DNA from: Candidatus Saccharimonadota bacterium
GTDB taxonomy: Bacteria > Patescibacteriota > Saccharimonadia > Saccharimonadales > UBA4665
Length of the DNA stretch: 32,000 nt
Direction: 5' to 3'
Assembly (NCBI GenBank): GCA_002952755.1
Contig: CP025011.1
Location: 1,230,001-1,262,000 of the forward strand
Positions 7,522 to 29,168 of this stretch are shown here, piece after piece. A program made the position numbers and the translations under genes. The number at the start of each line of letters is the position of its first letter. The stretch's first letter is position 1. The notes beneath the pieces are model-generated. The model worked only from the letters and a program-made list of their open reading frames with translations. It was not told the DNA's origin and made no database searches.

Positions 7522-8593
7522 CTACGATCGTAATTACAACGATTAAGCCAAGCAAGAATACAAAACTAGCCCCCACGATGCGCTCTTCCATGTCTTTCGA
7601 GAGTCGCTTACCAAATACACGTGATAGCACAAGTACATAAAAACGACCCCCGTCTAGTGCAGGGATAGGTAAAACGTTCATGATAGCCAAACTTAGTGAG
7701 ATTAAACCAACTATAAGCAGCACAAACTGATACCCAAGCAAACTGCCATCGTGCAAGACAACGACGATCCCTACCGGTCCGGACACCTGCTCGCTTGCCT
7801 TCGCTCCGTCACCATGAAACACAGCATTTATCGCCGTTCCAAGCCCTTGAAACGTTGCAATAGTAAATTGCTTCATGAGCCCCAAGGCTTGCAAGGGCGC
7901 CGACCATGTTGACCGAGTAAGCGCAAACTCGGCTGGCGACAATCCTAAGTAGGCGCCATTCTTTGCCTGGGCAGCAGAACGCAAAGTAGCATAAGCGACG
8001 TGCTGTTGGCCACCGCGCATATACGTAATTGAAGCTGATGTACCCGCAAATCGCTTGGTGAGTTGTGGCAACTGATCTGCGCTTGAAATCTGTATGGCAT
8101 TAATAGCTACAAGGCGATCTCTGGTACGCAGACCACTTGTCGCAGCAGGGGTGTGGGGTTCGATAAGCCCAACCAGCACCTCTCGATGTGCTATCTGTGT
8201 GTCGCTAGCAATGTGATACTGATTATCTAAAAGCCGGGGCATGCCTACCCAACCAAGAATGGTAAAAATAACAAAAGCGGCAAGCAAGTTCATAGCTACA
8301 CCAGCCAGCATAATCTTGCCCTTGGTTTTAAAAGAGGACGCCCCAAAGCTACCGGCTTCTGTCGCGGAATCGTTCTCCCCCTTTAATTTTACAAAGCCGC
8401 CAATCGGCAGCCAGTTAAGCGTAAACAAAAAACCTTTTTTTGTTTTGCGCGCCCAAGCACGAGGTGGAAAGCCGATACCAAATTCCTCAACCTCTACACC
8501 GCCCCGGCGCGCCACAATGAAATGGCCAAATTCGTGTAGTATCACTAGCCCAATAAAGAGCAACAAGCCGAGCACGAGCAAGACGATTGACAT
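7502..8593 (-). CDS. rseP: RIP zinc metalloprotease RseP/RasP (M50 site-2 protease with PDZ domain)
   Basis: HEFGHFIVAR (HExxH) in TM1, a central PDZ-like segment, and C-terminal NVLPIPALDGG. SD GGAGGGG directly upstream. Confidence 0.92.
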   Translation of the reverse strand: MSIVLLVLGLLLFIGLVILHEFGHFIVARRGGVEVEEFGIGFPPRAWARKTKKGFLFTLNWLPIGGFVKLKGENDSATEAGSFGASSFKTKGKIMLAGVAMNLLAAFVIFTILGWVGMPRLLDNQYHIASDTQIAHREVLVGLIEPHTPAATSGLRTRDRLVAINAIQISSADQLPQLTKRFAGTSASITYMRGGQQHVAYATLRSAAQAKNGAYLGLSPAEFALTRSTWSAPLQALGLMKQFTIATFQGLGTAINAVFHGDGAKASEQVSGPVGIVVVLHDGSLLGYQFVLLIVGLISLSLAIMNVLPIPALDGGRFYVLVLSRVFGKRLSKDMEERIVGASFVFLLGLIVVITIVDVRRFF

Positions 8594-8617: not shown

Positions 8618-9325
8618 CTAAGCGCCAAAACGTCGCTGGCGGCGACCGTATTCTTTAATAATATCGGTCACGTCCTGTTTTGTCATGTCTGGCCAGTATT
8701 TTTTCAAGAAATAAAACTCACTATAAGCAGCTCGCCACAGCATAAAATTACTGAGACGATGCTCGCCAGAGGTACGCACGATCATATCCAACGCAGGCGC
8801 TTCGGGGGCGTAGAGCCGCTCGGTAATTGCCTGCTCGGTTATGTTCTGAGGAGATAAACCATCTTCGACGCATTTACGTGCAGCGTCGGCGATTTCCTGC
8901 TGACCGCCATAGTTGAAACAGATGAGCAAGGTGCCGCCAGTGAGTGAGCGAGTCGCTTCTTCAGCTTTTTCGACAGCAGCTAAAAGTTTAGCACCTATCC
9001 CCTCACGACGACCAAGGTATCTCACACGGATCTTTTCATCCAAGAAATGCTTAAGATCTGAGGTGACCGCTCTGGTGGCCAGCTTCATTAAGTTCCCGAC
9101 TTCCGACTTATCGCGCTTCCAATTCTCCGTAGAAAAGGCATAGATCGATACAAATTGGACTCCCTGCTCGAAAGCACCGTCGATAACCTCGCGCAGAGCG
9201 TTATACCCCGCTAGATGCCCATCGTATTCGGGCAGACTATGCATAGTAGCCCAACGTCGATTACCGTCGACGATAAAGCCAAGGTGCTTGGGAGTAACTG
9301 TTGTATCGATTTCCATCTGCAGCAT
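8618..9325 (-). CDS. uppS: Isoprenyl transferase / undecaprenyl-diphosphate synthase
   Basis: HLGFIVDGNRRWA motif, FSTENWKR, RTSGEHRLSNFMLWRAAYSEF. 235 aa. Confidence 0.95.
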   Translation of the reverse strand: MLQMEIDTTVTPKHLGFIVDGNRRWATMHSLPEYDGHLAGYNALREVIDGAFEQGVQFVSIYAFSTENWKRDKSEVGNLMKLATRAVTSDLKHFLDEKIRVRYLGRREGIGAKLLAAVEKAEEATRSLTGGTLLICFNYGGQQEIADAARKCVEDGLSPQNITEQAITERLYAPEAPALDMIVRTSGEHRLSNFMLWRAAYSEFYFLKKYWPDMTKQDVTDIIKEYGRRQRRFGA

Positions 9326-13183: not shown

Positions 13184-14025
13184 TGATCGTCAATAATTTT
13201 CTGCATAGGGCAACAGGTAAGTTAGAAAAAGCAGGCATAGCAAGCGCACGTTTAGACGTACTTATCTTGTTGGAAGATGTGCTAGCTCGAAACCGGGCTT
13301 CAATTTTGGCACACCCCGAACTCAATCTCTCTAGCCGTCAAATCACTATATTGAACAACTATATTACTCAAAGGACACTCCATACTCCACTTGCCTATAT
13401 CAGAGGTACCAGCATGTTTTATGGGCGCTCATTTACCATAACAACAGATGTGCTAGTACCTCGACCGGAAAGCGAAGCAATGATTACCTTATTGCTGCGG
13501 ATAAGTAAACGCGCCCCAAACGCTCTACATATTGCCGATATTGGCACGGGCTCAGGCTGCCTAGGCATAACTGCCAAGTTAGAATTACCGACTGCACAAG
13601 TGGGCCTTTACGACATAAGCCCGGCCGCCCTCGCATGCGCTACACATAATGCCAAACTCTATGGCGTGGAAGTAATGATAGAAAAAGTCGACCTTATAAA
13701 AGAAGTATCTACACCAGGGAGTCGTTACAATGTCGTACTCGCCAACCTGCCCTATGTACCGGATGACTTTCCAATTAACCAGGCAGCCGCACATGAACCA
13801 AAGATTGCGCTTTTTGCTGGCTCAGACGGACTTGATTTGTATAGACGAATATTCATGCAGGTTGCAACATTAACCGATAGGCCCCGGCACATTATTACAG
13901 AATCCTTGCAACCCCAACACTCTAAACTCAAAAATATAGCCAAAAAAGCGGGGTATTATCTGCAAGAGACCGAGGGTTTGGCACAGCATTTCCTAGATAC
14001 CTTAGACCGGATAGGCCCTAACTAG
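13183..14025 (+). CDS. prmC: Release factor glutamine N5-methyltransferase PrmC/HemK
   Basis: Start overlaps the prfA stop (TAATG). SAM motif DIGTGSGCLG. Catalytic motif reads NLPY (13744-13755) instead of canonical NPPY. Confidence 0.9.
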   Translation: MIVNNFLHRATGKLEKAGIASARLDVLILLEDVLARNRASILAHPELNLSSRQITILNNYITQRTLHTPLAYIRGTSMFYGRSFTITTDVLVPRPESEAMITLLLRISKRAPNALHIADIGTGSGCLGITAKLELPTAQVGLYDISPAALACATHNAKLYGVEVMIEKVDLIKEVSTPGSRYNVVLANLPYVPDDFPINQAAAHEPKIALFAGSDGLDLYRRIFMQVATLTDRPRHIITESLQPQHSKLKNIAKKAGYYLQETEGLAQHFLDTLDRIGPN

Positions 14026-15256
14026 AAGGAGCAGTACCAAGAGTAACAGAAACCGTTTGCTGCTTGCCGCCCCTGAGAATATTCAGGATCACCGTATCAC
14101 CGACTACATGCTTATTAATGATTGCCGAGAGGCTGTTCGTTTGATCAATTGCGATATTGTCTATTTTGGTGATGATGTCGCCCTCTTTTAAGCCAGCCTT
14201 GGAGGCGGGTCCATCACTTAGAATCGTATCCGAACCAGTAGCGCTGGAAGTGGGGATATACGCACCGCGGGCAACACTTAGATTATACTGTTGCGCTACA
14301 TCATTAGTCAGAGGGATGTATACGACACCGAGGAAGGGCCGCTGCAGCTTGCCAGTTTGCTCTACAGATTTAATAAGACCGCTTATGTCGTTGATAGGAA
14401 TCGAGAAACCAAGGTTCTGAGCCCCATTCGCTACCGCCGTATTTATTCCGACAACGTCACCATCCAGATTAACTAATGGACCGCCGGAATTACCCTCATT
14501 AATAGCTGCATCTGTCTGGAACATATCTTCTAGATTCTCGTTACTTGCACCGCTCGAATCGCTGGCCTGAAGGCTACGTCCATAGCCTGAAATAATGCCA
14601 GAAGTAACCGTATTCTGGAATTGGCCTAGAGCGTTGCCGATCGCTACAACCGGATCACCAACTTTCATCTTCGTCGAATCGCCGATGGAAACAGGCGTTA
14701 ACTTTTTACCCTTGGTGTCACCTATCTTCAGGAAGGCGATATCAAGGCTATCGTTTTGATTTGTCCTTCCTACGACTGACACATTATCAAACTCCGTGCC
14801 ATCCGAAAGTGTAACCGTTACTTTAGTCGTCCCCGCAGGCGCTACATGCCGGTTTGTAATGATTAAGCCATCAGAAGTCAAAATGATACCGGTGCCAGCC
14901 CCCTGTTTTTGGCTGTCGGTACCAAAAAAACCCTGTGTCGTCTGTAAGGTGGTGATCGAGACTACACTCTGACCCACTGTTTGGGCAATATTGCTTATGA
15001 GCTGCCCTTGTGTTTTAAGGACCACTTGCTGTTTCTGAATAGTAGTAGCCGGGCTCTGATTCTTGTCGGCAAGCCAACCGCCCAAAAAGCCGAATGAAAT
15101 GCTTAAAATAAGTAACAAAGCAATAGCTAGAAATCGAATACGGGGATGATTAGGCCCTAAGGGGGCTTTTTTGTTTGTCTTTGGCGACCACTGCGGAATA
15201 AATCCCTGCTGTTCCGTTTGTCGTTCGTCCGTTTTTAAAGGCCCTTCGTTATCCAT
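14018..15256 (-). CDS. htrA: Membrane-anchored HtrA/DegP-family serine protease with C-terminal PDZ domain
   Basis: N-terminal TM (FLAIALLLILSISFGFLGGWLA), then a trypsin-like triad context (ITNRHV, DIAFLKI, GNSGGPLVN), then PDZ (LKEGDIITKIDN). SD GAGGGGAG. The 3' end overlaps prmC by 8 nt, convergently. Confidence 0.92.
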   Translation of the reverse strand: MDNEGPLKTDERQTEQQGFIPQWSPKTNKKAPLGPNHPRIRFLAIALLLILSISFGFLGGWLADKNQSPATTIQKQQVVLKTQGQLISNIAQTVGQSVVSITTLQTTQGFFGTDSQKQGAGTGIILTSDGLIITNRHVAPAGTTKVTVTLSDGTEFDNVSVVGRTNQNDSLDIAFLKIGDTKGKKLTPVSIGDSTKMKVGDPVVAIGNALGQFQNTVTSGIISGYGRSLQASDSSGASNENLEDMFQTDAAINEGNSGGPLVNLDGDVVGINTAVANGAQNLGFSIPINDISGLIKSVEQTGKLQRPFLGVVYIPLTNDVAQQYNLSVARGAYIPTSSATGSDTILSDGPASKAGLKEGDIITKIDNIAIDQTNSLSAIINKHVVGDTVILNILRGGKQQTVSVTLGTAPSS

Positions 15257-15274
15257 TCTCCCCTCACTCCCTCT

Positions 15275-16042
15275 CTAATGTAATAATGCACGTACAGTAC
15301 TAGTCGCGTTAACGGTCAACGATAATACTACGGCTATAATAATGGTATAGGTTGTTATCATAATTTCTAAACGTACTACTTTGGATAATCGATCGTAGTG
15401 ATCTAGGTAATATAACGCCGCCAGACCATAGCCAATTGCCACGAGCAACAAGGTTGGCTGAGCGATAAAGCCATAAAAAAGGAGCCAGTGGCCAAGTACC
15501 CATACCAAGGCACCTGCAAAATAGCCCCACAAATATGACAGGAGCTTAGCATAAGGCTCATCGAAGCTGTCGAAGAAATGTCGTGCAGTGAGATAGCATA
15601 TCAAAGAACTGGTCAGAACCAATGCGTAGAGTGCGCCGCCGCCCCATCCCAAAAAAAGGGCAGTCAGACCACTCAAAAGGCCAATCATCGACTGCAGCGA
15701 AACCATAGTTGCCCCCGATGCAGGCTTCAAAAATAACAGCCACAGCGCATACGCGGTCGCCCATAGCAGTTGCAGCCACTGCGTATCGCCGTGAACCATA
15801 AAGACCAGTAATGAAACGCCAACGATGATATCGACGGCATTTGCCCGAACATTAGCTGGCCAGAATCGAGGACGCACTGCAAACATACGCCACTTACTTA
15901 ACAAAATAATGGCCAAGGCTAGCTGGACAAAATCAATTCTCACGAGTACCAGCACGAGTAGTGCAAGAAGAATGTTCAAGCTAACATGTGCTAATCGCGA
16001 AAAACCACTGGCCGGTTTAATTTTGGCTACTAGTTGTCGCAT
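15275..16042 (-). CDS. Hypothetical polytopic integral membrane protein (about 7-8 predicted helices)
   Basis: 255-aa ORF, hydrophobic throughout, no recognised family. Its start overlaps the LCP gene stop by 26 nt, and its stop is 18 nt from the htrA start. Confidence 0.7.
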   Translation of the reverse strand: MRQLVAKIKPASGFSRLAHVSLNILLALLVLVLVRIDFVQLALAIILLSKWRMFAVRPRFWPANVRANAVDIIVGVSLLVFMVHGDTQWLQLLWATAYALWLLFLKPASGATMVSLQSMIGLLSGLTALFLGWGGGALYALVLTSSLICYLTARHFFDSFDEPYAKLLSYLWGYFAGALVWVLGHWLLFYGFIAQPTLLLVAIGYGLAALYYLDHYDRLSKVVRLEIMITTYTIIIAVVLSLTVNATSTVRALLH

Positions 16043-17756
16043 CCTGCCCTAAGATTATCACAAAATCATCACCTGTGGCTTGGATTGTGTTATCAGGCAA
16101 TCTGGTTGTCGCCTTAACACCGAAACGTTTTTCAAGGTAATTCTTAGTGTATGGTTTTTTGCCAGCAGTGAAGTCAACGAGCACAGTTTTCGTATAGGTG
16201 TGCGCTGGGGCGTCAGCTACGTTAACTACATTATATCCATAGGACTTTAGCTGATCCGATTTGCTCGTTGCTAGTCCGGCGGTATTGGTACCATTCAACA
16301 CGGCCACTGCTCCATTTTCTTTTGCCAAATACGGATCCCTTAGGGTATTACGAATATAATTCTGTATCTGACTATAATCATTAAATCCCGCTGTTGGGCG
16401 AACCACCGATGCGCTGCCTGCAGCGTCGGTCATGACAAAATTGTTTGGCGGGTCGGCTAAACCGACAGATGTTATGCCATTACCCGGAATATTCTTGCTA
16501 ATTTGCATCATCCTCAGGGCATCGTTAATACTGAAGTCAGTTGAGATATGATCACCAAACGCACTCATCAGTTCGGATATTTTAAGGGGATTAGTATACG
16601 TGCCGGCTGTCAGAATCTTACTACTTAAAGCCTGAATAAATAGACGCTGCCGCTCTGTCCGGTCAAAGTCGCCTCTTAGACTTGTATGCCGGGTACGAAC
16701 ATACATGAGAGCACGTAAACCATCGAAATGCTGCTGACCGGCGCCAACACTAAGTACATAGGGTTTGTGCGTATCTTCGTTGTACATGTAGTCGGTAACC
16801 GCCGCCGACTGCGGGACATTAAAGTCGACACCGCCAACCGTATCTACTGCTTGCTGAAATGCATGAAAATCAATAAGCCCATAGTAGTGGATTGGGATAC
16901 CTAGCACATCGGTCACTGTTTGTTTGGCAGCAGCGATGCCAGCATTCTGAGCCTTTTGCGCGTCTTTAGGCGCTGTATTAAGGGATCGATATTTGGCATT
17001 GGCATATACGGCATTGATCTTCATCGATCCATACGTGGGAACAGTAACCCAAAGGTCCCGGGGTATACTGACGAGGTCCGCCGTTTTATTCACAGGATCA
17101 ATGCTCGCAACAAGCAACGTGTCGGTTAGGTCAGGCCCGTCATGACCGTCGCCCCCTTTGCCGAGAAGAAGGACATTAATGCGGCCGTCGCCCTCCCCTT
17201 TCAATAATTCTGGCTTTACATTCGCCTGTAGCGCAACCGCCTTACCACCGCCCTTTAGCACCTTGTGAATTTTCGTAAACGCTTTTATACCTAAGAAGCC
17301 CCCAACGATAAGTATAAGTACCCCCAACACCATCGCTGTACGTACACCCCACTTACGGATAGCATACCAGGTGCCTACTGGAGTTTTAGTCTTTTTACGC
17401 TTACGATTTTTCTTGGCTTTGGCGTCAATCTCACCGCCAGGCAGCGTCATGTGTAAAAGTGAGGCGCTGCTATCGACTTTGCCCTTGGTTTTCTCTTTAC
17501 CACCCAATTGCGCAGTCTGTGGTAAGGTCGTATGGTACCCCTCCGGACGCCTGAAATCATCGACACGACGGCCACTCGTTTTAAGTCCATCCAGATGTAA
17601 CGATTGACGCTTTGCCGTCTGCGACCCCATCTCGGAACGTGCTGATGAGCTCAAAAAACCATCAAGCGCCTGTCGTGGATTACGACCAGAATTCTTCTTA
17701 AAATCGTGCATAGCGATGGGGCTTAGTATAGCGGCTTTCAGCCGGGCCGTAAACAT
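16017..17756 (-). CDS. LCP (LytR-CpsA-Psr) family glycopolymer/phosphotransferase with a long basic cytoplasmic N-terminus and a C-terminal LytR_C-like domain
   Basis: INVLLLGKGGDGHDGPDLTDTLLVASIDPVNKTADLVSIPRDLWV...KINAVYA is the LCP core. One TM (TAMVLGVLILIVGGFLGIKAF) follows ~140 Lys/Arg-rich residues. C-terminal VAVLNGTNTAGLATSKSDQLKSYGYNV. The start is uncertain (17756 or Met at 17711; neither has an SD). Confidence 0.9.
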   Translation of the reverse strand: MFTARLKAAILSPIAMHDFKKNSGRNPRQALDGFLSSSARSEMGSQTAKRQSLHLDGLKTSGRRVDDFRRPEGYHTTLPQTAQLGGKEKTKGKVDSSASLLHMTLPGGEIDAKAKKNRKRKKTKTPVGTWYAIRKWGVRTAMVLGVLILIVGGFLGIKAFTKIHKVLKGGGKAVALQANVKPELLKGEGDGRINVLLLGKGGDGHDGPDLTDTLLVASIDPVNKTADLVSIPRDLWVTVPTYGSMKINAVYANAKYRSLNTAPKDAQKAQNAGIAAAKQTVTDVLGIPIHYYGLIDFHAFQQAVDTVGGVDFNVPQSAAVTDYMYNEDTHKPYVLSVGAGQQHFDGLRALMYVRTRHTSLRGDFDRTERQRLFIQALSSKILTAGTYTNPLKISELMSAFGDHISTDFSINDALRMMQISKNIPGNGITSVGLADPPNNFVMTDAAGSASVVRPTAGFNDYSQIQNYIRNTLRDPYLAKENGAVAVLNGTNTAGLATSKSDQLKSYGYNVVNVADAPAHTYTKTVLVDFTAGKKPYTKNYLEKRFGVKATTRLPDNTIQATGDDFVIILGQDATTSSQN

Positions 17757-17809
17757 ATGCGATATGTAATTTACGGTGAGACTAATCGTGCTGCGGCATT
17801 TCCGCGAGC

Positions 17810-20800
17810 CTAGTTGCGCGCAGCAAATTGCGCCTGTAGGTCGATGTAGTCTAGGTAGACCGATACACTTGTGGTTCCGATCGTTTTAGCGAGGCTATTT
17901 TGAAACGTCGTATTCCGGCCGGCACCTGTTGGAATATTGGAAGTCACCTGGCAATCGTCCACCCCATTGACGTAGAAATCGGCTGACGTACCAGTCGTAT
18001 TTACTGCCACAGTCAGTCTATACCAAGTGCCAGCAGACACGGCAATAGTAGTATCGCAGGTTGTCGAAGAACTATTGCTATTACAAACTCCTTGCCACTT
18101 ACCGCCATTGACGTTATCACTATATTTAAAGTAGCAGCCATCTGCTCCATCAATGTTGCCTAAATTATTGGCATCGTCAAAGCCAGCACGATAAATAAAG
18201 CGCTGCGTACCGGTTGAAAGTACGGGGATCTTGACGTCTGTCTCATAGCGCCAATAGTCTCCGTTGCCAAGCAAGATACTGCTTTCATTCCGATCTGAGG
18301 AACTCACTAGACTAGCGCCGGCTGCAGTCGTGCCTGTTTCTTGCTCTACAATTCCCGGGTGGCCGGTCGCGCCCGCCTGCGTGCCGTCATCATTAACTGC
18401 ATTTGTACCTGAGACAGCAAAGGTAAAGTAAGCATCGTTTGTGGCACTAATCATCTCATTGGTTATGTTCCAGTCAGAATTTGCGCTCGCTATGCAGTCT
18501 CGCCAAAAGCCAGCCTCACGGCAACGGAATTTATTAAGGCTAGAATTGTAGTACATTGCACCATCGACACCAGTTGGATCGCCGGTATTAGTCTTGTTAC
18601 CCAGGACGAGAATTGTACCCGTAGTATCCCCTGCGGACGGGCCGATAATGATTTTATCGTTGGCAGTGTCCACAGTTAAATAGTTAACGGAGCTTGAGTT
18701 TTGAACTATGAACGCCGTTGCCGAGTTGGTGTTAGTATGGACTTTCGTGCCTGCAGTAGATGCATTGGTAGTAAGATTGATATTCCCTGTGCCGCCCTGA
18801 ATAGTGGTAGCACTAGAACCGTTAGTGCTGCCGATAGTAACTGTATCTACGCCCGCCCCCGTGGCACTGCTAGCGATATTGACAGTTTGAGTGTTGGTCG
18901 TTGCCGCATCGCCGATGCTGATTGTGTTCGACGATGTTGATCGCCCTATGGTAATGGCTCCTGTTTGCGACGTGCCGCCCAGTGTCGTTGTCCCCGTTGT
19001 CGATCCGCTGCCAAATAACAGATTTTCATTGAAAAGAGATCCTAAGGATAGGGTACCACTCGCTTGGGCGTCAATCTGTACAGCAGATGCGCCGTTACCA
19101 CCTTGGATGCTCGTCGTTGAAGAAGAGCCTGATGATCCAATAGCTATGGTTTGAGTAGCAATAACATTGCCGATATTAATAGTGCCGCCCGAGCTGCCGC
19201 CTTTTATATTGACCGTCGTACTGTTTGCGATCGCACTACCAATATTGATAGTCTCGGAGTTCGAACCATTACCAAGATTCAAGCCGCCTGACGAACCGCC
19301 GAGAATGGTCGTGACGTCTCCCGAGTTGTCCGAGCCGATATTGACGGTCTGAGTACCGCTCGAGTCTGTGGCTATATTGACCGTGGAACTTCGGAGGCCG
19401 TTTTGCGCACCGATGTTGACGGTACCGGCATTCGACGTGCCTACATTTACGGTGCCAGTTCCGCCGGTATCCAGAAGGAGAGTGTTAGTACTCGCCGCCT
19501 GAATAGTAAGGTTGCCCGCGCTTGTCGACCATGTCGAGGCCGCACCTGCTGTAATCGTGACGCCATTCCCTTGAATGACGGTCGTGCCGGTTGCATTCGG
19601 GCCCGAACCAATGTTAACTGCCGATCCGCCACCAGCCGTGTTGGTGTAGCCAATATTAATTGTTGCCGTGCCGGAATTTTGAGCTGTGCTACCAATGTTA
19701 GTAACCGTATTAGCGTTGGGCGAAGTCTCAATATTGGTCGTCGTGCCGTTAAAGGCTGAACCAGTGCCTCCAGTCGAACCTCCCGTCGAACCAAGGTTAA
19801 TATATCCGCCACTAGAGTCCACTGCAAAAAGCGTGTTGCCTGCACTGTTCTCGATCTGAACAGTTGTCGTAGAGTCAGTGGTTGGTTTTTCAAAAAACTG
19901 TCCCTGGATAGCAAAGCCAAAGACAACAGCTCCTAACCCTGATGCATTTTGTGCTCTTAGGCTCAAGAAGTTACCGCCACCAAGGCCGCCGTTTGCATCC
20001 TGAATATTTATATCATTGACTGCGCTGCTAAGCTTGATGGTTGTATTAGCGCCACCGGCTGAGGCGTTGTAGGCGGTCTGCAGCGAGCAACCGCTTGCGC
20101 TGTTGTCTGTACAGATGTTTGCGTTAGCATTAACAGCTGGCAAAGTAAGCGCGAAGTTGCCGGTATTTGGTGTCGTGGGACCCTGTAATGTCAGGGTACC
20201 CGTACCACCTGATCCTTTGAAGACGATGGCGCCTGTATTAGATGAGGCCGTACCAAGCGTCAGTGCATTATTATTGGTAAAGATGCCTGTGCCACCCTGA
20301 ATGGCTGCAGTTGTGGTGATCGTATTGCCCGTCGATATCGTGCCAAAACCGGAAGCAATAGAGCCAGTCGAAAGAGCGCCAACTTTTTGCAAATTACTGT
20401 AGGTAGCTGACGAATCGATTGCAGCATTCTGCAATAGTCCAGTCCCAGATAACAGCGTCGTACCGTTATAGCTCAACAGGCTACTAAAACCAGTGCCGAA
20501 TGCAATGCCATTAAAGGTGTTGTTGGTAGCAGCCGATACACTTCCGAAGCTTAAGCCAGTGATCGTGTTCGAACCGGAAGCGTTATTTGTGCCTGCGAGA
20601 TTAATTGCAACACCCTGTAAGGTTGTCGTGCCACTGCCGGCGCTATCTGTAACTGCAAAGGTGCTCGCGCTGCCGCTGGTTACGTTCAATGTTTGTGTAA
20701 ATAGCTCGCCGATGCCAACGGTCGTACCATTATCAGTAATGCCCGAGTTGCCAAGCGTCTGGGAACCGGTAAACTTGGCGATTGTATTATTCGTACCGCC

Positions 20801-23800
20801 GGCAGTAGTCACTCCGCCGCCGCTGCCGGCACAGTTACCAGAATCAGTGCAAATAATTCCACTAGCGTCAGGTAGGGTCAGCGTTCTGTTGGCGGTTGGT
20901 GTGCCAGGCACAATTGTTACTGTGTTGCCATTCGAAGCATTATTAAATACCAACGTACCATCTAAGGTGCTAGCTTTCCCTAAAATGAGCGAGTGTCCTG
21001 ATGTGCTGACCGTCAGAACAGTATTGCCAAGTGCGTTCTGTACATTGAATGCATTGGTTGAATCGCTGCCATTTTCGAAAGCTACGGTGGCGCCGGTAAA
21101 TGTTTGGCTGGCGTTCAATTTTGCCAGATTACTATCGTTACTCAGATTCGCCGAGGATATCTGCGTACCATTAATTTCGTACACATGGCCAGATGTAAGG
21201 TTGAAGTGGCCGCTTGCAGTGAGGACGCCGCCGGATTGGGCAAGGAGTGAATCACCAATTACCTGCGAACCGGTAAAGACCGGCAGCGTACCGATGGTAC
21301 CGCCCGCAGTGGTAACACCCCCACCAGCGCTAGAACAGTTACCAATAGTCGTACAGATAGTATACGTCCCTGCTGTTGCCGCGCGGTCGAAGTTGTATGT
21401 TACCGCACCAACGGGAGTCCCCGAAAAGCCTACTGTTGTTGTGAAACCGCCACCAGTAGCAGTAAACGTAGAGCTGGCGTTGCCTTGCAACGTCAGTGTT
21501 TGCCCCGTTGCGCCAACAGTAAGTGAACCGCCTGGCGTTATGCTTAATGCGCTCCCAGAGCTCAGCGTACTGCCATTAACTGTCAGATTGCCGCTGAATG
21601 TCGCATCACCGGCGGCTGCAATAGCCAAACGAGTAAGTCCATTTGTGCGGATATTGAGGGCGTTATTATCGTTCGTGCCCAACACGCCAGCGGCGCTAAA
21701 ACTATTACCATTCTGAACAAAGGCAGAACCGCTACCTGTCGCGAACCCACAGTTTGAGCTGTTATTAAGGCAAACAGTGCCCGTACTATCTGGCAGCGTA
21801 ATGGTCCGCGCCGCAGTAGCTGTGCCAGTAATAGTAAAATTATTTGTCCCTGGCGTTAGCGAACTGCCTGCAATATACAAATTGCGGAATGGCGTTGAAC
21901 TTGCGCCAAGATCTACTGTGGTGCTGCCAGGTAATAGCGACGTGTTAATTGCTACTGAACTTAGATTAGAAAGCGCCGTGTTGGCACCACCGCCACCACC
22001 GCCCAAGCAGTTTCCACTGCTCAAACAAACAGTACCGCTGGCATCTGGTAGCGTATATGTCTGTGCGCCCGTCAACGCACCTTGGACTAATGTTCCGCTA
22101 AAATTCGCTGCACCATAGGCTAACACCAAAGATCCCGTCTGGCTATTAGCAATGCCCAGAGTGGCGCTACCGCCCTGAACTACCAGGTTCACGCTCGTCG
22201 TAACAGTTGTACCCGTGTCGCTAATGGTAGAATTGCCAATCGTACCGCCAGTGCTGGTAAACTTTGCCAAACGATTGTTCGTACCCGAGCCCGTAACTCC
22301 GCCACCGCTTCCTGCGCAGTTGCCACTAGTTAGACAAATGGTCGCAGTGCCGGCGCCAGGATCCGGTAATGTGTACACTGTGTTCTGTCCGAGAGCCGCC
22401 GTCACTATATTGCCGGTGTGCGTAGCACCGTCATTGAGCGACAGCGTACCAGCTTGGGCATTCGTTCCAAGGGTAATGGTACCGCCTTGCAAATTTGCGT
22501 TGCCACTTGCGGTAAGCGCAACTATATTAATTAGGTTGCCACTATTATCTACCCTAGTAACTCCACTGGTTTGCAGCGCCCCACCAGAAGAATTGATATT
22601 CCCGGAACCCGAATATGTAGTACCTCCAGAAATGGCACCAGACAGTGTAACATTGCCGATATTCAGCGCATTGCCACTATTATCTATCCTCGTAGTTGAG
22701 TTAGTCTGGATCGCTCCGCCTGTAGTGTTGATCGTGCCCGAGCCTGTATAGGTTGTACCCCCAGAAATAGATCCAGCTAATGACATGCTGCCGATGTTAG
22801 CCAGATTACCGGCGTTGTCTACGCGCGTAATACTGTTGGTCTGGAGTGTACCGCCGCTGCTATTAACAGTACCGCTGGCTGTAAAGCTACCCGTGACGCT
22901 TGCACCGCTAGTGGTAACAGCTAGGTAGGTCGTAGAACCAGCATTGTTTTGTACTTCAAATAAATTAGCACCAATAGGCGTAGCATTATCACGCACCGTT
23001 AGTGCCCCCCTGGTTGCATCAAGCGTAATCTCAGGACTCGTAGAGTTGTTATAGGCAGACTGGAGGGTAACCGCTGCACCTGCACAGTTGCCTATGCTCA
23101 AACAAACAGTACCCGAAGCATCGGGCAATGTGATAGTTCGATTGCCACTTACGGCTGCCGATATTAGTGCAACAGTATTTGCATTGCTGGCGTTATCAAA
23201 TAAAAGCTGGCCGGCTTGGGTACCAGCTTGCCCTAATTCAACGTCTCCAACCGAAGTATTAATACTAAATAAGCCAGCTCCGCCAGCATTCTGGACTGCA
23301 AAAGCCAGTGCGGAATCTGCCGTATTCTTAAATGTATTGGTAGCGCCGGTAAATGTTTGGCTGGCGTTCAATTTTGCTAAATTGCTGTCATTACTTAAAT
23401 TGGCAGATGTTATTTGTGAGCCATTCACTTGAAATAGATGACCACTGGTTAGATTGAGATTGCCATTGCTCGTCAGGACGCCGCCGGATTGGGAAAGAAG
23501 TGAATCTCCAACCGTTTGCGCCCCAGTAAAGACGGGCAACGTACCAGTTGTACCGCTGCCGGAGACCGTGCCGCCTAGCCCAACACAATTGCCAAATGTC
23601 GTACAAACGTCAAACGTACCGCCGCTAGTAGTAGCAAAACGATATGTTGTGTTGGCAGTCGGGGTCTGAAAATTAAGTGTCGTAGAAAGAGCCCCGCTTG
23701 TAGCGCTTATAAGGCTCCCTGCCGCTCCCTGCAAAGTAAAGTTTTGTGTGGCAGAACCAACCGTTAATGCCGCACTAGGCGTAATAGTATTTGTGTTCAC

Positions 23801-25132
23801 GCCTGCAAACGTCGGTGAAGCTGCGGTGTTAATATTCTGAACGGTATTTACTACGCCGCTTAAAACTGAAAAATTGGTAGCACTAAAGCTCGCGATACCC
23901 TTGCTTCCAGTTGTAGCATCATTAATGGTAACCGCCGATCCTGATCCGGTAGAGTTGGCAATCGTTAGAGCCCCTGTCAACCCGTCTAACGACGTTACGC
24001 CACCCCCACCAGAACATGAGGCAAACGCCGGTGTCCCGGCCGTAGAAACCAAACACAAACCAGCGCTAGCCGCAGTTACTGAATTGATTACTCCTGCCCC
24101 ATTACCTACAAGCACGCCATTCGCCGCAAGCGTATTCGCTCCCGTTCCTCCGTTTGTCACGCCGAGCGGCGTACCGAGCGTGGCGCCGCCTGAAACATTC
24201 AAGTCACCTGTTACCGTGACCGTAGTGCCACTTTGGCTAATCACCGAATCACCAATAGCTTGGGCTCCCGTAAATAGAGCGACTTGTCCGGCCGTACCGC
24301 CAGTACTCGACACCGTACCCGTTCCAGCTCCCACGCTACTAATTGTCAAATTTCCATTTGCATCACTCGCGATCTGTAAGTTTGTCGTGCCCGCCGTCAA
24401 GCTTAGGATGCTGGCATTTTGCAATGTAGCGCCATTCATCTTTAGACCACTGCCGACACTAATTGCCCCGCTCTGGCCGCCAAACGACACAACTCCTGCG
24501 TTTGCCAGCTGATTACCCACCACACTCAGGCCACCGCCCAAAGTAACATCCCCGCTTAAACCTCCCACAGTTTGGACCACTGTGCCTGATGCGCTGAGCG
24601 GGACGAAAGCCGTACCATTGTAATACGCGAGTTCGTTTGTATTTTGGTCATAATAGATTTGGCCGGCCTTTGGTGCGTTCGGTTGTACCGAAGGCGCAAC
24701 GACCAATCCGTCATTCAGTCTCATCGCGCCGTTTACGACCACACTGCTTGTGCCAAAATTAACCCCTTGCTCATTCACCACAAAACCGCTCAGAGGAATC
24801 TGAACGGAACTATACTGGTTCTGGATATTATTGTTAGCAGATTGTGTCGGCCGTTTGTGCGTATTAGCAACAACCAGACCAATGAGACCCAAACAGAGCA
24901 ATACAACCAATACGATATCAGCGCGACGCAACGCTTGTACAATTCGCTGAGTCCGGGTCTTAGGTTTCACAATCGGCACGGCTGGAGATGGCCGCGACAG
25001 AGAATCGGGGTCAAGAGATAATCCCTCTAGACCTAATAAGCTAGTTGCCGGAGTAGGGCTTGAAATCGTTGGAGACTGTCCCACACCATCGCCAGCAAAC
25101 GCAACACCGGTATTTTGGTCTTGGTTTTCCAC
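17810..25132 (-). CDS. Giant (2,440 aa) N-terminally membrane-anchored, Gly/Thr/Ser/Asn-rich modular fibre/adhesin-like surface protein with a LamG/ConA-like C-terminal domain
   Basis: Uninterrupted 7.3-kb ORF with a GTG start in the track. Single TM at aa 73-89 (nt 24866-24916). Repeated TLPD-x-SGT-x-C-x5-7-C modules. C-terminal 227 aa with GTWYRLTVAVNTTGTSADFYVNG. No C-terminal sorting signal. Confidence 0.9.
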   Translation of the reverse strand: MENQDQNTGVAFAGDGVGQSPTISSPTPATSLLGLEGLSLDPDSLSRPSPAVPIVKPKTRTQRIVQALRRADIVLVVLLCLGLIGLVVANTHKRPTQSANNNIQNQYSSVQIPLSGFVVNEQGVNFGTSSVVVNGAMRLNDGLVVAPSVQPNAPKAGQIYYDQNTNELAYYNGTAFVPLSASGTVVQTVGGLSGDVTLGGGLSVVGNQLANAGVVSFGGQSGAISVGSGLKMNGATLQNASILSLTAGTTNLQIASDANGNLTISSVGAGTGTVSSTGGTAGQVALFTGAQAIGDSVISQSGTTVTVTGDLNVSGGATLGTPLGVTNGGTGANTLAANGVLVGNGAGVINSVTAASAGLCLVSTAGTPAFASCSGGGGVTSLDGLTGALTIANSTGSGSAVTINDATTGSKGIASFSATNFSVLSGVVNTVQNINTAASPTFAGVNTNTITPSAALTVGSATQNFTLQGAAGSLISATSGALSTTLNFQTPTANTTYRFATTSGGTFDVCTTFGNCVGLGGTVSGSGTTGTLPVFTGAQTVGDSLLSQSGGVLTSNGNLNLTSGHLFQVNGSQITSANLSNDSNLAKLNASQTFTGATNTFKNTADSALAFAVQNAGGAGLFSINTSVGDVELGQAGTQAGQLLFDNASNANTVALISAAVSGNRTITLPDASGTVCLSIGNCAGAAVTLQSAYNNSTSPEITLDATRGALTVRDNATPIGANLFEVQNNAGSTTYLAVTTSGASVTGSFTASGTVNSSGGTLQTNSITRVDNAGNLANIGSMSLAGSISGGTTYTGSGTINTTGGAIQTNSTTRIDNSGNALNIGNVTLSGAISGGTTYSGSGNINSSGGALQTSGVTRVDNSGNLINIVALTASGNANLQGGTITLGTNAQAGTLSLNDGATHTGNIVTAALGQNTVYTLPDPGAGTATICLTSGNCAGSGGGVTGSGTNNRLAKFTSTGGTIGNSTISDTGTTVTTSVNLVVQGGSATLGIANSQTGSLVLAYGAANFSGTLVQGALTGAQTYTLPDASGTVCLSSGNCLGGGGGGANTALSNLSSVAINTSLLPGSTTVDLGASSTPFRNLYIAGSSLTPGTNNFTITGTATAARTITLPDSTGTVCLNNSSNCGFATGSGSAFVQNGNSFSAAGVLGTNDNNALNIRTNGLTRLAIAAAGDATFSGNLTVNGSTLSSGSALSITPGGSLTVGATGQTLTLQGNASSTFTATGGGFTTTVGFSGTPVGAVTYNFDRAATAGTYTICTTIGNCSSAGGGVTTAGGTIGTLPVFTGSQVIGDSLLAQSGGVLTASGHFNLTSGHVYEINGTQISSANLSNDSNLAKLNASQTFTGATVAFENGSDSTNAFNVQNALGNTVLTVSTSGHSLILGKASTLDGTLVFNNASNGNTVTIVPGTPTANRTLTLPDASGIICTDSGNCAGSGGGVTTAGGTNNTIAKFTGSQTLGNSGITDNGTTVGIGELFTQTLNVTSGSASTFAVTDSAGSGTTTLQGVAINLAGTNNASGSNTITGLSFGSVSAATNNTFNGIAFGTGFSSLLSYNGTTLLSGTGLLQNAAIDSSATYSNLQKVGALSTGSIASGFGTISTGNTITTTAAIQGGTGIFTNNNALTLGTASSNTGAIVFKGSGGTGTLTLQGPTTPNTGNFALTLPAVNANANICTDNSASGCSLQTAYNASAGGANTTIKLSSAVNDINIQDANGGLGGGNFLSLRAQNASGLGAVVFGFAIQGQFFEKPTTDSTTTVQIENSAGNTLFAVDSSGGYINLGSTGGSTGGTGSAFNGTTTNIETSPNANTVTNIGSTAQNSGTATINIGYTNTAGGGSAVNIGSGPNATGTTVIQGNGVTITAGAASTWSTSAGNLTIQAASTNTLLLDTGGTGTVNVGTSNAGTVNIGAQNGLRSSTVNIATDSSGTQTVNIGSDNSGDVTTILGGSSGGLNLGNGSNSETINIGSAIANSTTVNIKGGSSGGTINIGNVIATQTIAIGSSGSSSTTSIQGGNGASAVQIDAQASGTLSLGSLFNENLLFGSGSTTGTTTLGGTSQTGAITIGRSTSSNTISIGDAATTNTQTVNIASSATGAGVDTVTIGSTNGSSATTIQGGTGNINLTTNASTAGTKVHTNTNSATAFIVQNSSSVNYLTVDTANDKIIIGPSAGDTTGTILVLGNKTNTGDPTGVDGAMYYNSSLNKFRCREAGFWRDCIASANSDWNITNEMISATNDAYFTFAVSGTNAVNDDGTQAGATGHPGIVEQETGTTAAGASLVSSSDRNESSILLGNGDYWRYETDVKIPVLSTGTQRFIYRAGFDDANNLGNIDGADGCYFKYSDNVNGGKWQGVCNSNSSSTTCDTTIAVSAGTWYRLTVAVNTTGTSADFYVNGVDDCQVTSNIPTGAGRNTTFQNSLAKTIGTTSVSVYLDYIDLQAQFAARN
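20825..21545 (-). repeat. Internal ~240-aa module, copy B (paralogous to 23071-23790)
   Basis: Encodes SITPGGSLTVGATGQTLTLQG...GTLPVFTGSQVIGDSLLAQSGGVLT...ANLSNDSNLAKLNASQTFTGAT...RTLTLPDASGIICTDSGNCAG. A 35-nt run at 21090-21124 is identical to 23343-23377. Confidence 0.85.
22505..22900 (-). repeat. Three tandem 135-nt (45-aa) coding repeats inside the giant gene
   Basis: Units: ...SGTVNSSGGTLQTNSITRVDNAGNLANIGSMSLAG / SISGGTTYTGSGTINTTGGAIQTNSTTRIDNSGNALNIGNVTLSG / AISGGTTYSGSGNINSSGGALQTSGVTRVDNSGNLINIVALTASG. TTGCCACTATTATCTA recurs at 22536 and 22671. Confidence 0.85.
23071..23790 (-). repeat. Internal ~240-aa module, copy A (paralogous to 20825-21545)
   Basis: Encodes TITPSAALTVGSATQNFTLQG...GTLPVFTGAQTVGDSLLSQSGGVLT...ANLSNDSNLAKLNASQTFTGAT...RTITLPDASGTVCLSIGNCAG. 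The offset to copy B is 2,253 nt over most of its length. Confidence 0.85.
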
Positions 25133-25178
25133 GATTGTTTTTGTTTTTCTCTCATTACAGAGAGTTCTCCCTAATAGT

Positions 25179-25207
25179 ATCGTACGTGCTTATGTTTTCC
25201 TTGACAA
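25179..25207 (-). promoter_or_regulatory. Possible internal promoter in front of the giant gene
   Basis: Minus strand TTGTCA (25202-25207), 17 nt spacer, TACGAT (25179-25184), inside the 114-nt gap between the 284-aa gene and the giant gene. Confidence 0.35.
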
Positions 25208-25246
25208 GCTTTTTTCGTGCTAGATATAGCAAAAACCTGTGGATAA

Positions 25247-26101
25247 CTAGGTAGTTAAAATAAGATAGATGACGATAGCGGCGAATACCAGCATACCCAA
25301 AACACTGAGGCCCACCTCGAGTAAACTTTTATAGATTGATTCCTTGGATAATGGGTTACGTCCGATCGAAATGATGCTTGAACGTATAGAGGAATATAGC
25401 AGCACCGTAACCACTGTAAAAAGTAATAGCACGAGCAGAGCAGAGATAACGACCCGCATGGAAGATACTTCGTGGCCGGCAACTGTGCTTGCAAATTGCT
25501 GCAGCACGGGTGGTAAGAATGAATTCTGGCTTGGAGTTGCTTGGTAGAAAACCTTGTCGACCTGTACAGGAATCGCCCCAATGCGAACCGTTTTTTCCTT
25601 ACCATGTCTGTCAGTGACCGATCGGGAATCGGTATCCGCCGTGGAAAGATCTGCCTGAGCAGTACCAATAACCAGAGTACTCGCAGTCGCTTTCATGCCC
25701 ACGCCTGCAATTGGCGAAGCGGCAATCTTGTCGCCGTCTTTAATCGAACCATTAATGTCACTAACGAGTACGGTGACCGACCCATTTGTCACCACCTGTA
25801 CTGAACTTTTTCCAGTTGTGAGCTCTATTACTGATTTATTGCCCACGACTCCCAGCAAGCGCTCGGCATTATCCTCAGTTCCAAGCTCCAAAGTATTAGG
25901 AGTGCCTTGCTTAAGACTAACAAGCGCGCCGACAACGATTTTTGTGTCGGTGCTTTGAAAACCCTGAGAGATAGAAGAGGTCCCTTGGGCATGCACACCT
26001 GGTGTCATAAGTGTCAAAAGCAATATTACCGTGCCACTCCAGGTATACTTCATTCTCTGACCGATTGTCCGTCGCCTGACCAACATGTTGCAGAGCCCCA
26101 C
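25247..26101 (-). CDS. Hypothetical exported protein: signal peptide, beta-rich ectodomain, C-terminal two-helix membrane hairpin with an R-N-P loop
   Basis: Track ORF with a GTG start at 26101. In-frame ATGs at 26086 and 26053 (MKYTWSGTVILLLTLMTPGVHA-QG is a classic signal peptide). C-terminus VVISALLVLLLFTVVTVLLYSSI-RSSIISIGRNPLSKESIYKS-LLEVGLSVLGMLVFAAIVIYLIL. A candidate -10 TATAAT lies at 26121-26126 (minus). Confidence 0.75.
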   Translation of the reverse strand: MGLCNMLVRRRTIGQRMKYTWSGTVILLLTLMTPGVHAQGTSSISQGFQSTDTKIVVGALVSLKQGTPNTLELGTEDNAERLLGVVGNKSVIELTTGKSSVQVVTNGSVTVLVSDINGSIKDGDKIAASPIAGVGMKATASTLVIGTAQADLSTADTDSRSVTDRHGKEKTVRIGAIPVQVDKVFYQATPSQNSFLPPVLQQFASTVAGHEVSSMRVVISALLVLLLFTVVTVLLYSSIRSSIISIGRNPLSKESIYKSLLEVGLSVLGMLVFAAIVIYLILTT

Positions 26102-26208
26102 TAACTTAGCTTTAGATAAAATTATAACTCAGATTGCATAAACAGCGAAAACAGCACTCGAACGCCTCGTGCATAATCGGCTACTTTCGGGTATAGTTGG
26201 GTCTTGTA

Positions 26209-26871
26209 ATGCATGACGAAAGACCAACTCCAGAAGAATCGCATAAGATAGTTCCAGGCCCCAGCCTCGACAAGGTAAACAAGCCAGCTCATAAGCGCGA
26301 GAGCTTTCGGAGCGTCCTATCTACTATCGCCATACTGCTCATAGCGCCACTTATCGCAATCCTCTTAACGGCATTTGTGTTCCAGTCGTATCAGGTAGAC
26401 GGCCCCAGTATGCAGACGACACTGCACGACAAAGATCGTCTTATCGTCTGGAAACTGCCACGCACCTGGTCGCGCCTGACGGGCCACGACTACGTTCCCA
26501 AACGGGGTGATATCGTGGTATTTACCACACCCAACCTAGCAAACTTCGGTCAGGATCCTAATAAACAGCTTATTAAGCGTGTTATTGGGCTACCTGGCGA
26601 TAAAATCGTCGTCCAGAATAATATCCTAACCGTTTACAATGCTGCGCACCCTAATGGCTTTCGTCCGGATGCCACCTTATCCTACGGCCATGTTATTCAG
26701 GGGACTAATATTGATGGTGAATGGACAGTCGCCAAAGGCCAGCTCTTTGTATGCGGAGACAACCGCTTCGACTCGCTCGACTCTCGCCTTTTTGGGCCTA
26801 TTCAGTCAAAGGATATTATCGGCAAATTAGTCGTCCGCATACTACCTGTCAGTCAGGCAATGCGATTTTAG
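26209..26871 (+). CDS. lepB: Signal peptidase I
   Basis: VDGPSMQTTL (catalytic Ser box), KRVIGLPGD (Lys box) and GDNRFDSLDSRLFGPI. ATG 26209 is preferred to the track TTG 26197. Confidence 0.93.
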   Translation: MHDERPTPEESHKIVPGPSLDKVNKPAHKRESFRSVLSTIAILLIAPLIAILLTAFVFQSYQVDGPSMQTTLHDKDRLIVWKLPRTWSRLTGHDYVPKRGDIVVFTTPNLANFGQDPNKQLIKRVIGLPGDKIVVQNNILTVYNAAHPNGFRPDATLSYGHVIQGTNIDGEWTVAKGQLFVCGDNRFDSLDSRLFGPIQSKDIIGKLVVRILPVSQAMRF

Positions 26872-28523: not shown

Positions 28524-28640
28524 TTGGATAGGTGTCGTCACCACAATCGTAAGCCCCTTTTTGCATGGTAGTACTATACGGCTAGCCGCTATGCTCATAT
28601 CGACTTGCTGTCATTGAAAAAAATCGTTACATTGAAATGT

Positions 28641-29168
28641 ATGACAGATCACCCCAGCCCAGAACAACCCACGTCGCAAAACATTGCATCTAAAACTCGA
28701 TCAAGCAGACCAAGACGCTTGCTATATATAGGCTTGCTGATTGTGATCCTTTCGGCCGCCGGTATTGGCTACTTCTTTTGGAGACACCAAGGTAAAAATC
28801 CATTGCTCGCGGATTTACAGACTACCCCAAACTTTCCGCTATACTACCCCACCCTCCCTACGGAATTTACCTACAAAAAAGGGTCTGGTAGCCTTCGGAG
28901 TGGCGTCGTCTTTTTTGCTATAGAAAAAGGTGACGAAACGACTCTTATAAGTGAGCAGGCAGCTCCGACTACGAGTCCTCCCAAGCTAGACGACCTGAAA
29001 GGTTTTACCAAACTAGCCATACCTGCGGGAAATGCCGTGATTGGCGCAAACGCAAACCAACCCGTAGCCATTATTCTTAGTAACACGACGCTTATCACAA
29101 TCAACGGCCAAGCAAATACGCCCAGCGATGTAGTTAGTAGCATCGCTAAAAATATGAGCTCACTCTAA
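28641..29168 (+). CDS. Hypothetical single-pass membrane-anchored protein with an extracytoplasmic domain (DUF4367-like layout, tentative)
   Basis: Track ORF 28605..29168 (TTG). In-frame ATG at 28641. TM LLYIGLLIVILSAAGIGYFFW after a basic stretch. Ectodomain begins PLYYPTLPTEF. No SD for either start. Confidence 0.65.
   Translation: MTDHPSPEQPTSQNIASKTRSSRPRRLLYIGLLIVILSAAGIGYFFWRHQGKNPLLADLQTTPNFPLYYPTLPTEFTYKKGSGSLRSGVVFFAIEKGDETTLISEQAAPTTSPPKLDDLKGFTKLAIPAGNAVIGANANQPVAIILSNTTLITINGQANTPSDVVSSIAKNMSSL

Follow-up and report, generated by a model that had tools for sequence, protein, structure and literature searches.

A conserved LCP, membrane protein and htrA gene unit beside a variable giant fibre gene in Saccharibacteria

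Do five adjacent, co-oriented genes in a Saccharibacterial genome form one system built around a giant fibre, or do they belong to several units that lie side by side? The question is raised by a 32,000-nucleotide (nt) stretch of Candidatus Saccharimonadota bacterium (GenBank assembly GCA_002952755.1, contig CP025011.1, positions 1,230,001 to 1,262,000 of the forward strand), referred to here as the window, within which all coordinates are given. As the original prediction had described, the window contains open reading frames (ORFs) for five consecutive minus-strand genes: exp284 (25247–26101 as the longest ORF in the ORF list, with a probable start at Met6, position 26086), a giant fibre gene (17810–25132; GTG start, 2440 amino acids (aa)), an LCP enzyme gene (16017–17756 as the longest ORF, 579 aa; probable start at ATG 17711, 564 aa), the gene for an orphan polytopic membrane protein of 255 aa, here called mem255 (15275–16042), and htrA (14018–15256, 412 aa). 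These genes had been proposed to work as a single unit dedicated to the fibre. The comparative evidence presented below instead favours a conserved, probable cell-wall operon of LCP, mem255 and htrA, which lies beside a variable insertion specific to one subclade and coding for a giant probable adhesin.

Relatives were collected with an alignment of 15 mem255 homologues, which led to 512 GTDB species; the best 80 of these 512 loci were retained with flanks of up to 10 kb, the homologues of window genes were located in them by tblastn, and adjacency was then scored. This choice biases the sample towards loci of 52–89% identity. All 80 loci come from GTDB representative genomes of the Saccharibacteria type, and the closest named relatives of mem255 are found in Candidatus Saccharimonadales/Saccharibacteria metagenome-assembled genomes, which places the window in Saccharimonadales (TM7, Patescibacteria). 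Across the sample, LCP, mem255 and htrA are a conserved co-oriented unit: in each of the 79 evaluable loci htrA comes immediately downstream of mem255, at a median gap of 24 nt, and LCP lies directly 5′ of mem255 in 59 of 78 loci. The stop of LCP overlaps the start of mem255 in 43 of 57 loci, by 26 nt in 26 of them, 20 nt in 13 and 4 nt in four. Further away, a mem255 family member of 31% identity keeps the LCP, membrane protein and HtrA genes together, and in a member of 25% identity LCP and the membrane protein are followed by prmC, without HtrA. The backbone shared by the loci consists of parA, parB, lepB (on the opposite strand), optionally LCP, then mem255, htrA, prmC and prfA (both on the opposite strand) and rpsB; in the window, htrA is convergent with prmC, with an 8-nt overlap.

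The two remaining genes of the five are distributed very differently. Of 73 evaluable loci, 54 have lepB as the direct divergent neighbour of LCP or mem255 and hence lack both exp284 and a fibre gene; lepB lies less than 1 kb from LCP or mem255 in 55 of the 58 loci in which it was located. A large co-oriented ORF rich in T, G, S, N and A is found 5′ of LCP in 16 loci, and additionally in L013 with an intervening gene. exp284 occurs alone, directly 5′ of LCP and without a giant, in two loci (L006 and L019); in L088–L091 it adjoins lepB and precedes variable giants. All 19 loci with a fibre and/or exp284 have a mem255 identity of at least 68% and thus belong to the window's own subclade. Conservation of the five-gene neighbourhood, which the original prediction had itself named as a check, does not extend over the 80 loci, since the five-gene order occurs only in this subclade.

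The junctions within the cluster point in the same direction. With the longest-ORF calls they measure 114 nt (exp284 to fibre), 53 nt (fibre to LCP), a 26-nt overlap (LCP with mem255) and 18 nt (mem255 to htrA), so the tight packing initially reported holds for these calls, but the spacer between fibre and LCP widens to 98 nt if LCP starts at the conserved ATG 17711, and it holds a conserved promoter. This later start is likely judging from the alignments: the N-terminus M-[HD]-[DEN]-F is conserved across 35 upstream alignments, and ATG 17711 is Met16 of the long ORF, where the window reads M-H-D-F. The promoter is of the sigma-70 type (17725–17753, minus strand; −35 TTTACG at 17753–17748, a 17-nt spacer and −10 TATACT at 17730–17725) and ends 13 nt before the LCP start. 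TTTAC-N18-TATACT is matched exactly in 29 of the 35 regions upstream of LCP, 11–16 nt before the ATG; variants of the form TTTAC(G/C/T) occur, the hexamers being otherwise invariant and the spacer sequence free. From locus to locus, the spacing between element and ATG changes by numbers of nucleotides not divisible by three, so that protein coding does not account for this conservation. The element is kept whether a fibre gene, exp284, an opposite-strand gene or lepB lies upstream, it is the sole match to the TTTAC-N18-TATACT pattern in the window, and a generic promoter scan found the same site. In loci without LCP, mem255 carries its own TATAAT-like box 10–15 nt from its ATG. This element speaks against a single five-gene operon without an internal promoter.

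Promoter-like sequences also precede the two upstream genes. For the fibre gene, the element lies at 25179–25207 (minus strand; TTGTCA, 17 nt, TACGAT; 9/12 match in the scan), and its −10 region together with the adjoining ‘CATAAGCA’ is conserved 5′ of the L020 and L088 fibre genes, with L089 identical in this part. For exp284, a TATAAT −10 box is found at 26121–26126 (minus strand), in the region divergent from lepB, with equivalents in L006, L019, L021, L088 and L090. The scan revealed no terminator-like site in any of the four junctions; the statement that the fibre–LCP spacer lacks a terminator was thus borne out, and the predicted folding of this spacer is no stronger than that of shuffled versions (z = −0.39). 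In six close relatives (L004, L008, L013, L017, L018 and L020), an opposite-strand ORF of 174–211 aa separates the end of the fibre gene from the promoter of LCP. The most economical reading of these arrangements would be three transcription units, namely exp284, the fibre gene, and LCP–mem255–htrA.

Sequence divergence separates the fibre from its neighbours as well. At this site, relatives encode giants of 1369 to 4506 aa with unrelated C-termini, for example CBM_4_9/Kelch or tail-collar-like ones, and the fibre tip is only 28–51% identical among relatives, compared with 55–89% for the flanking genes. In the closest relative, L004, identities are 89% for mem255, 80% for prfA (RF1), 77% for htrA, 74% for LCP, 64% for the middle of the fibre and 48% for its tip, which makes mem255 the most conserved protein of the neighbourhood in that genome. 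Tips that diverge this fast, together with variable lengths and termini, therefore indicate a fast-evolving adhesin rather than the conserved substrate of a conserved enzyme.

The composition of the fibre is consistent with such a role. T, G, S, A and N make up 62% of its residues, and most of its 25 cysteines fall in ten short C-x5-8-C loops; there are five TLPDxxGTxC motifs, and a 290-aa module is duplicated (residues 430–720 versus 1184–1472, 51% identity), and degenerate versions of it recur over most of the protein; no tandem repeats were found in the fibre gene at the DNA level. The only hydrophobic segment, residues 64–93 (24854–24943, minus strand), is predicted from its hydrophobicity to act as a signal-anchor or long signal peptide, and the full-length orthologues in L020 (59–91) and L021 (57–89) have an equivalent N-terminal segment. 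Neither an LP.[TSA]G (LPXTG) motif nor a C-terminal transmembrane (TM) segment was detected in the 2440 aa. The full-length protein has no match in Pfam, NCBIfam or PHROGs, and neither the full protein nor a C-terminal profile matched the Protein Data Bank (PDB), but scanning the last 300 aa alone against Pfam recovered an SO2946-like C-terminal, ConA-like/LamG-related tip at residues ~2258–2428 (17849–18361, minus strand; PF22237 at 1.1e-17, 64.9 bits against a cutoff of 27; Laminin_G_3 weakly, at 4e-5). Homologues of the tip carry PF22237 or PF13385. The fibre is thus most likely an adhesin. It resembles the giant adhesins described for Patescibacteria/Saccharibacteria and others, which include lectin-tipped fibres and the essential S. 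epibionticum adhesins that carry VCBS, dockerin or FN3 domains. Common to them and the fibre are very large size, low-complexity beta-rich repeats, a tip of carbohydrate-binding type and hypervariability between relatives. It differs from them in having an N-terminal signal-anchor rather than sortase, type I secretion system or autotransporter features, and in a TLPDxxGTxC...GNC Cys-loop module that lacks a Pfam model. The extent of tip variation is illustrated by L028, whose giant (end at 6898) closes with a phage tail-collar-like ‘...NMQPFVVVNYIIKY’, by L005 and L049 with ‘WGE.(V/I)GKV.G...LQ’, and by the 4506-aa giant of L088 (10963–20840) with CBM_4_9 and Kelch matches.

The identities originally given to LCP and HtrA were confirmed by domain searches. 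LCP matches Pfam LytR_cpsA_psr (PF03816, 5.1e-36, 124.5 bits; cutoff 24.6), LytR_C (1.2e-10) and NCBIfam TIGR00350 (111.5 bits; cutoff 62.3), and it aligns with Bacillus subtilis TagV (6uf3) at 1e-22 with identical motifs D-(T/S)-L, SIPRD, R-x-R and GDF-R-x-x-RQ, whose Arg and Asp residues would, as in the family generally, form the pyrophosphate/Mg site. A basic N-terminus is followed by a single TM segment (ORF residues 136–164), the catalytic domain (211–381) and a C-terminal LytR_C. Enzymes of this family move polyprenyl-diphosphate-linked glycopolymer onto peptidoglycan. With the LCP ligases B. subtilis TagT/U/V, Streptococcus pneumoniae Cps2A and actinobacterial Lcp1/CpsA with LytR_C, the window protein has in common the catalytic domain, single N-terminal TM segment, extracytoplasmic domain, TagV motifs and LytR_C; unlike them, its gene overlaps that of an orphan polytopic membrane protein, and no membrane partner of this obligatory kind is known to us for those LCP enzymes that have been characterised. 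HtrA contains a TM segment at about residues 37–64, a trypsin-like domain and one PDZ domain (Pfam Trypsin_2 1.3e-29, 104 bits; PDZ_2 4.8e-15, 56 bits; both over their cutoffs). Its translation includes TNRH, DIAF and GNSGGP, presumably the His/Asp/Ser triad as known in this family. These domains, the N-terminal membrane anchor and the triad-consistent motifs are common to HtrA/DegP/DegQ proteases, although the window protein departs from these in its single PDZ domain and in scores under equivalog cutoffs, NCBIfam degP_htrA_DO giving 3e-79, below that model's cutoff.

mem255 represents a large family of its own. It has 2933 homologues (E≤1e-3, 90% clusters), forming 221 clusters at 50% identity and nearly all 245–270 aa in length, and relatives occur in at least 512 Saccharibacteria species in GTDB. 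No match was found for it in Pfam, NCBIfam or PHROGs, and a Pfam scan of 63 family members gave no consistent match, only 29 different chance matches of single members. An AlphaFold2 (AF2) model built from 63 diverse sequences is all-helical, with ~9 membrane helices (predicted local distance difference test score, pLDDT, 93.6; predicted template modelling score, pTM, 0.89). Foldseek against the PDB returned a best E of 0.48 and TM-scores of at most 0.31 among the 50 matches listed, and a profile search of PDB sequences gave 0 matches. K50 and W101 are invariant, and W51, D71, K106, P107, Q117, H155 and W186 are retained in at least 90% of members. By the positive-inside rule, the basic conserved residues K50, R52, K106 and R154/H155 would face the cytoplasm, where, speculatively, they might bind a phosphorylated lipid head group. 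Assignment as a PAP2 phosphatase, considered for the resemblance of K50-x6-R-P to PAP2 motif C1, was rejected, as R57 and P58 are not conserved and neither a PAP2 Pfam match nor a significant Foldseek match was obtained.

Published genetics from a relative bear directly on these genes. Southlakia epibionticum ML1 encodes the backbone at SEML1_0183–0190 (Wang et al., Cell 2023, PMC10633639, Tables S1/S2), with the same parA, parB, lepB, LCP, hypothetical, protease, prmC and prfA genes as in the window; the interval from lepB to LCP contains no exp284 and no fibre gene. By transposon sequencing (Tn-seq), SEML1_0186, an LCP gene with LytR_C, and SEML1_0187, a 780-bp hypothetical gene (259 aa), are essential at all three time points, whereas SEML1_0188, encoding a trypsin/PDZ protease, is non-essential with 66–72 insertions; a second LCP gene, SEML1_0086, a few genes downstream of extracellular polysaccharide (EPS) biosynthesis genes, is also non-essential (PMC10633639). 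SEML1_0187 has no ProtNLM, Pfam or ECOD (DPAM) assignment there, its Foldseek matches are all to uncharacterised proteins, and the SEML1_0183–0190 genes are tabulated but not discussed as a unit (PMC10633639). By analogy, LCP and mem255 are probably essential in the window's organism. The earlier suggestion of a partnership between the membrane protein and LCP gains support from the LCP/mem255 overlap in 43 of 57 loci, and the shared essentiality of the positional orthologues is compatible with it.

According to the reading we favour, LCP, mem255 and htrA would constitute an envelope-maintenance operon that has a sigma-70-type promoter to itself and a transcript with a very short leader. LCP would be a single-pass membrane enzyme whose extracytoplasmic catalysis attaches a glycopolymer to peptidoglycan; mem255 would be translationally coupled to it by the 26-nt overlap and serve the same membrane step, most plausibly by handling either the substrate in its lipid-linked form or the carrier lipid once released. 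The part of HtrA would be accessory, providing membrane-anchored quality control of exported proteins generally. exp284 and the giant fibre would form a lineage-specific surface-protein insertion between lepB and LCP, each gene having its own promoter-like element. The fibre itself would comprise an N-terminal TM anchor, a repetitive shaft, rich in beta structure and held together by short Cys loops, and an SO2946-like/ConA-like end, and may serve as a glycan-binding adhesin for attachment to a host or substrate.

The original prediction went further and proposed that all five genes may act together, LCP decorating the fibre or linking it to the wall, mem255 being a partner or flippase-like component and HtrA the chaperone or protease of the fibre. 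Co-orientation, short junctions and the lack of terminator-like sites agree with such a unit, as do the giants 5′ of LCP in 16–17 of 19 subclade loci, and LCP-dependent protein glycosylation has a precedent in Actinomyces oris LcpA–GspA (PMC6381275). As here, an LCP enzyme and a surface protein occur together in one organism in that case, but the window fibre differs from GspA in its N-terminal anchor and in the lack of an LPXTG sequence, and its adjacency to LCP is not conserved. GspA is an LPXTG protein handled by sortase; because the fibre has no LPXTG signal, the analogy lacks its defining substrate feature, and an association of the A. oris type does not fit an LCP gene that has its own promoter and lacks a fibre 5′ of it in 54 of 73 loci. 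The wider proposal meets the same difficulty: no fibre is present at this site in those 54 relatives or in S. epibionticum, yet LCP and the positional orthologue of mem255 are essential in the latter, where HtrA is dispensable (PMC10633639). Whichever gene lies upstream, the promoter of LCP is conserved, opposite-strand ORFs part the fibre from LCP in six close relatives, and the fibres at the site are not orthologous in tips or length. A unit dedicated to the fibre is, on these grounds, highly improbable.

Two further explanations concern the conserved genes themselves. mem255 might be tied to HtrA, as its membrane platform, regulator or obligatory client, with the adjacency of LCP being incidental; the 79/79 adjacency of the two genes, set against LCP missing beside mem255 in 19 of 78 loci, and their short gaps would fit such a tie. 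This is nevertheless quite unlikely given that the positional orthologue of mem255 is essential and HtrA tolerates 66–72 insertions, that the most distant member examined keeps LCP and has no HtrA downstream, and that the start/stop overlap is with LCP and not with htrA. Alternatively, the three genes could be neighbours simply through a frozen housekeeping gene order, mem255 having an unrelated essential membrane function. The stretch from parA to rpsB is syntenic over 80 species, including the unrelated prmC, prfA and rpsB, and neither annotation nor a structural relative links mem255 to glycopolymer biology, which speak for this view; it is made unlikely by the 4–26-nt LCP/mem255 overlap in 43 of 57 loci, by the single conserved promoter before LCP, with overlaps and short gaps in the loci with LCP that would leave little room for others, by the -10-like box that mem255 gains near its ATG where LCP is missing, and by an adjacency that persists at 25–31% identity. 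A conserved LCP–mem255–htrA operon beside a variable adhesin insertion remains the reading we prefer, and several points weigh against it. Synteny extends over the entire backbone and takes in prmC and prfA, which are unrelated, so that lasting adjacency by itself argues only weakly that LCP, mem255 and HtrA are functionally linked, and 19 of 78 loci have no LCP beside mem255. SEML1_0187 was matched to mem255 by position, size and lack of annotation and not by sequence alignment, so that its orthology is presumptive; when it was sought among the accessions of the mem255 clusters, no matching accession was found. The role of mem255 is purely our inference, neither a homologue of known function nor a structural relative having been found. 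Since no terminator separates fibre and LCP in the window, read-through from the fibre promoter into LCP is possible, and the giants 5′ of LCP in 16–17 of 19 subclade loci make a clade-specific functional link possible.

Beyond the operon itself, mem255 (SEML1_0187 in S. epibionticum) might be an essential part of the machinery of Saccharibacteria for attaching wall glycopolymers, confined to this group, hitherto unrecognised and with a fold that has no solved relative, made stoichiometrically with LCP via the gene overlap and presenting or flipping the polyprenyl-linked substrate or recycling the carrier lipid; we put this forward tentatively and regard it as rather doubtful. CPR (Candidate Phyla Radiation) bacteria are without many canonical lipid and envelope genes, and if the proposal were true, mem255 would be a missing step of their envelope biogenesis. 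It is a testable candidate for such an unassigned envelope-assembly step in a phylum uncultivable by itself, and the only Saccharibacterium for which there are Tn-seq data has a positional orthologue of it that is essential. The fibre site is a hotspot of differing tip domains, relevant to host recognition by epibionts. For annotation, the locus illustrates that, when a CPR genome is compact, co-orientation with short gaps does not amount to evidence of a functional system.

Among the upstream genes, exp284 belongs to a family of 1346 homologues of ~278 aa, and it probably starts at Met6 (26086), which would give ~279 aa, as in its homologues. The protein has a signal peptide, a beta-rich ectodomain of ~170 aa and a C-terminal two-helix hairpin (25247–25501) with an invariant SSIISIGRNPLS loop. 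Its AF2 model, from a 44-sequence alignment, is too poor (pLDDT 56.9) to support a fold search or an assignment of function. The hairpin, with its IGRNP loop and a Glu in the second helix, bears a superficial likeness to the ATP-synthase c-subunit, but kinship was rejected, as Pfam gave no support even at E≤10. exp284 is divergent from lepB, a signal peptidase I gene at 26197–26871 on the plus strand (Pfam Peptidase_S26, 6e-40). Immediately 3′ of the exp284 stop lies a consensus DnaA-box 9-mer, TTATCCACA (25238–25246, minus strand), with a second perfect copy at 31061–31069; L021, L088 and L090 have exact copies in the corresponding position, L020 has one that is a single base off, and near-matches occur upstream of LCP in L017 and L019. 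DnaA boxes are not enriched in the window, with 9 matches against 6.6 expected at ≤1 mismatch. Ahead of the fibre GTG, a hairpin CTCTC-N6-GAGAG followed by an A-rich tract (25148–25167) is also found in some relatives. As a conserved RNA in the 5′ untranslated region of the fibre gene, this hairpin was rejected, RNAalifold giving 5 pairs, 0 compensatory changes and −0.88 kcal/mol.

The window encodes a second fibre-like protein, big926 (29183–31963, minus strand), of 926 aa and rich in T, G, S and A. An 84-aa segment including a G-A-M-Y-Y-N-S-S...F-R-C motif is common to both proteins (fibre 2134–2214 versus big926 668–751; 46% identity, 1.5e-18 by blastp). The N-terminus of big926 shows no signal peptide or TM segment, its ORF begins 37 nt from the window edge, and this ORF may represent the distal portion of a fibre gene that is larger or split. 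Convergent with it is p187 (28605–29168, plus strand), encoding a small single-pass membrane protein to which three of the six opposite-strand ORFs mentioned above are detectably related. A convergent small membrane-protein gene of this kind recurs 3′ of fibre genes, the 2440-aa fibre of the window being without one, and it may be a fibre-associated module.

uppS, which the original prediction had listed as also encoded in the window, is indeed present (8618–9325) but has no specific link to the cluster: its place is 5 kb from there, with frr and rseP on either side, within a housekeeping block of frr, uppS, rseP, a CAAX protease gene, proS, greA and lysS. rseP (7502–8593) comes directly after uppS, without cdsA between them. 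In many bacteria cdsA is located between these two genes, and its absence here may fit the reduced lipid synthesis of CPR bacteria. Elsewhere in the window, a 226-aa protein with a DUF11 repeat (4e-6), encoded at 832–1512 on the plus strand, is probably another surface protein, unrelated to the cluster.

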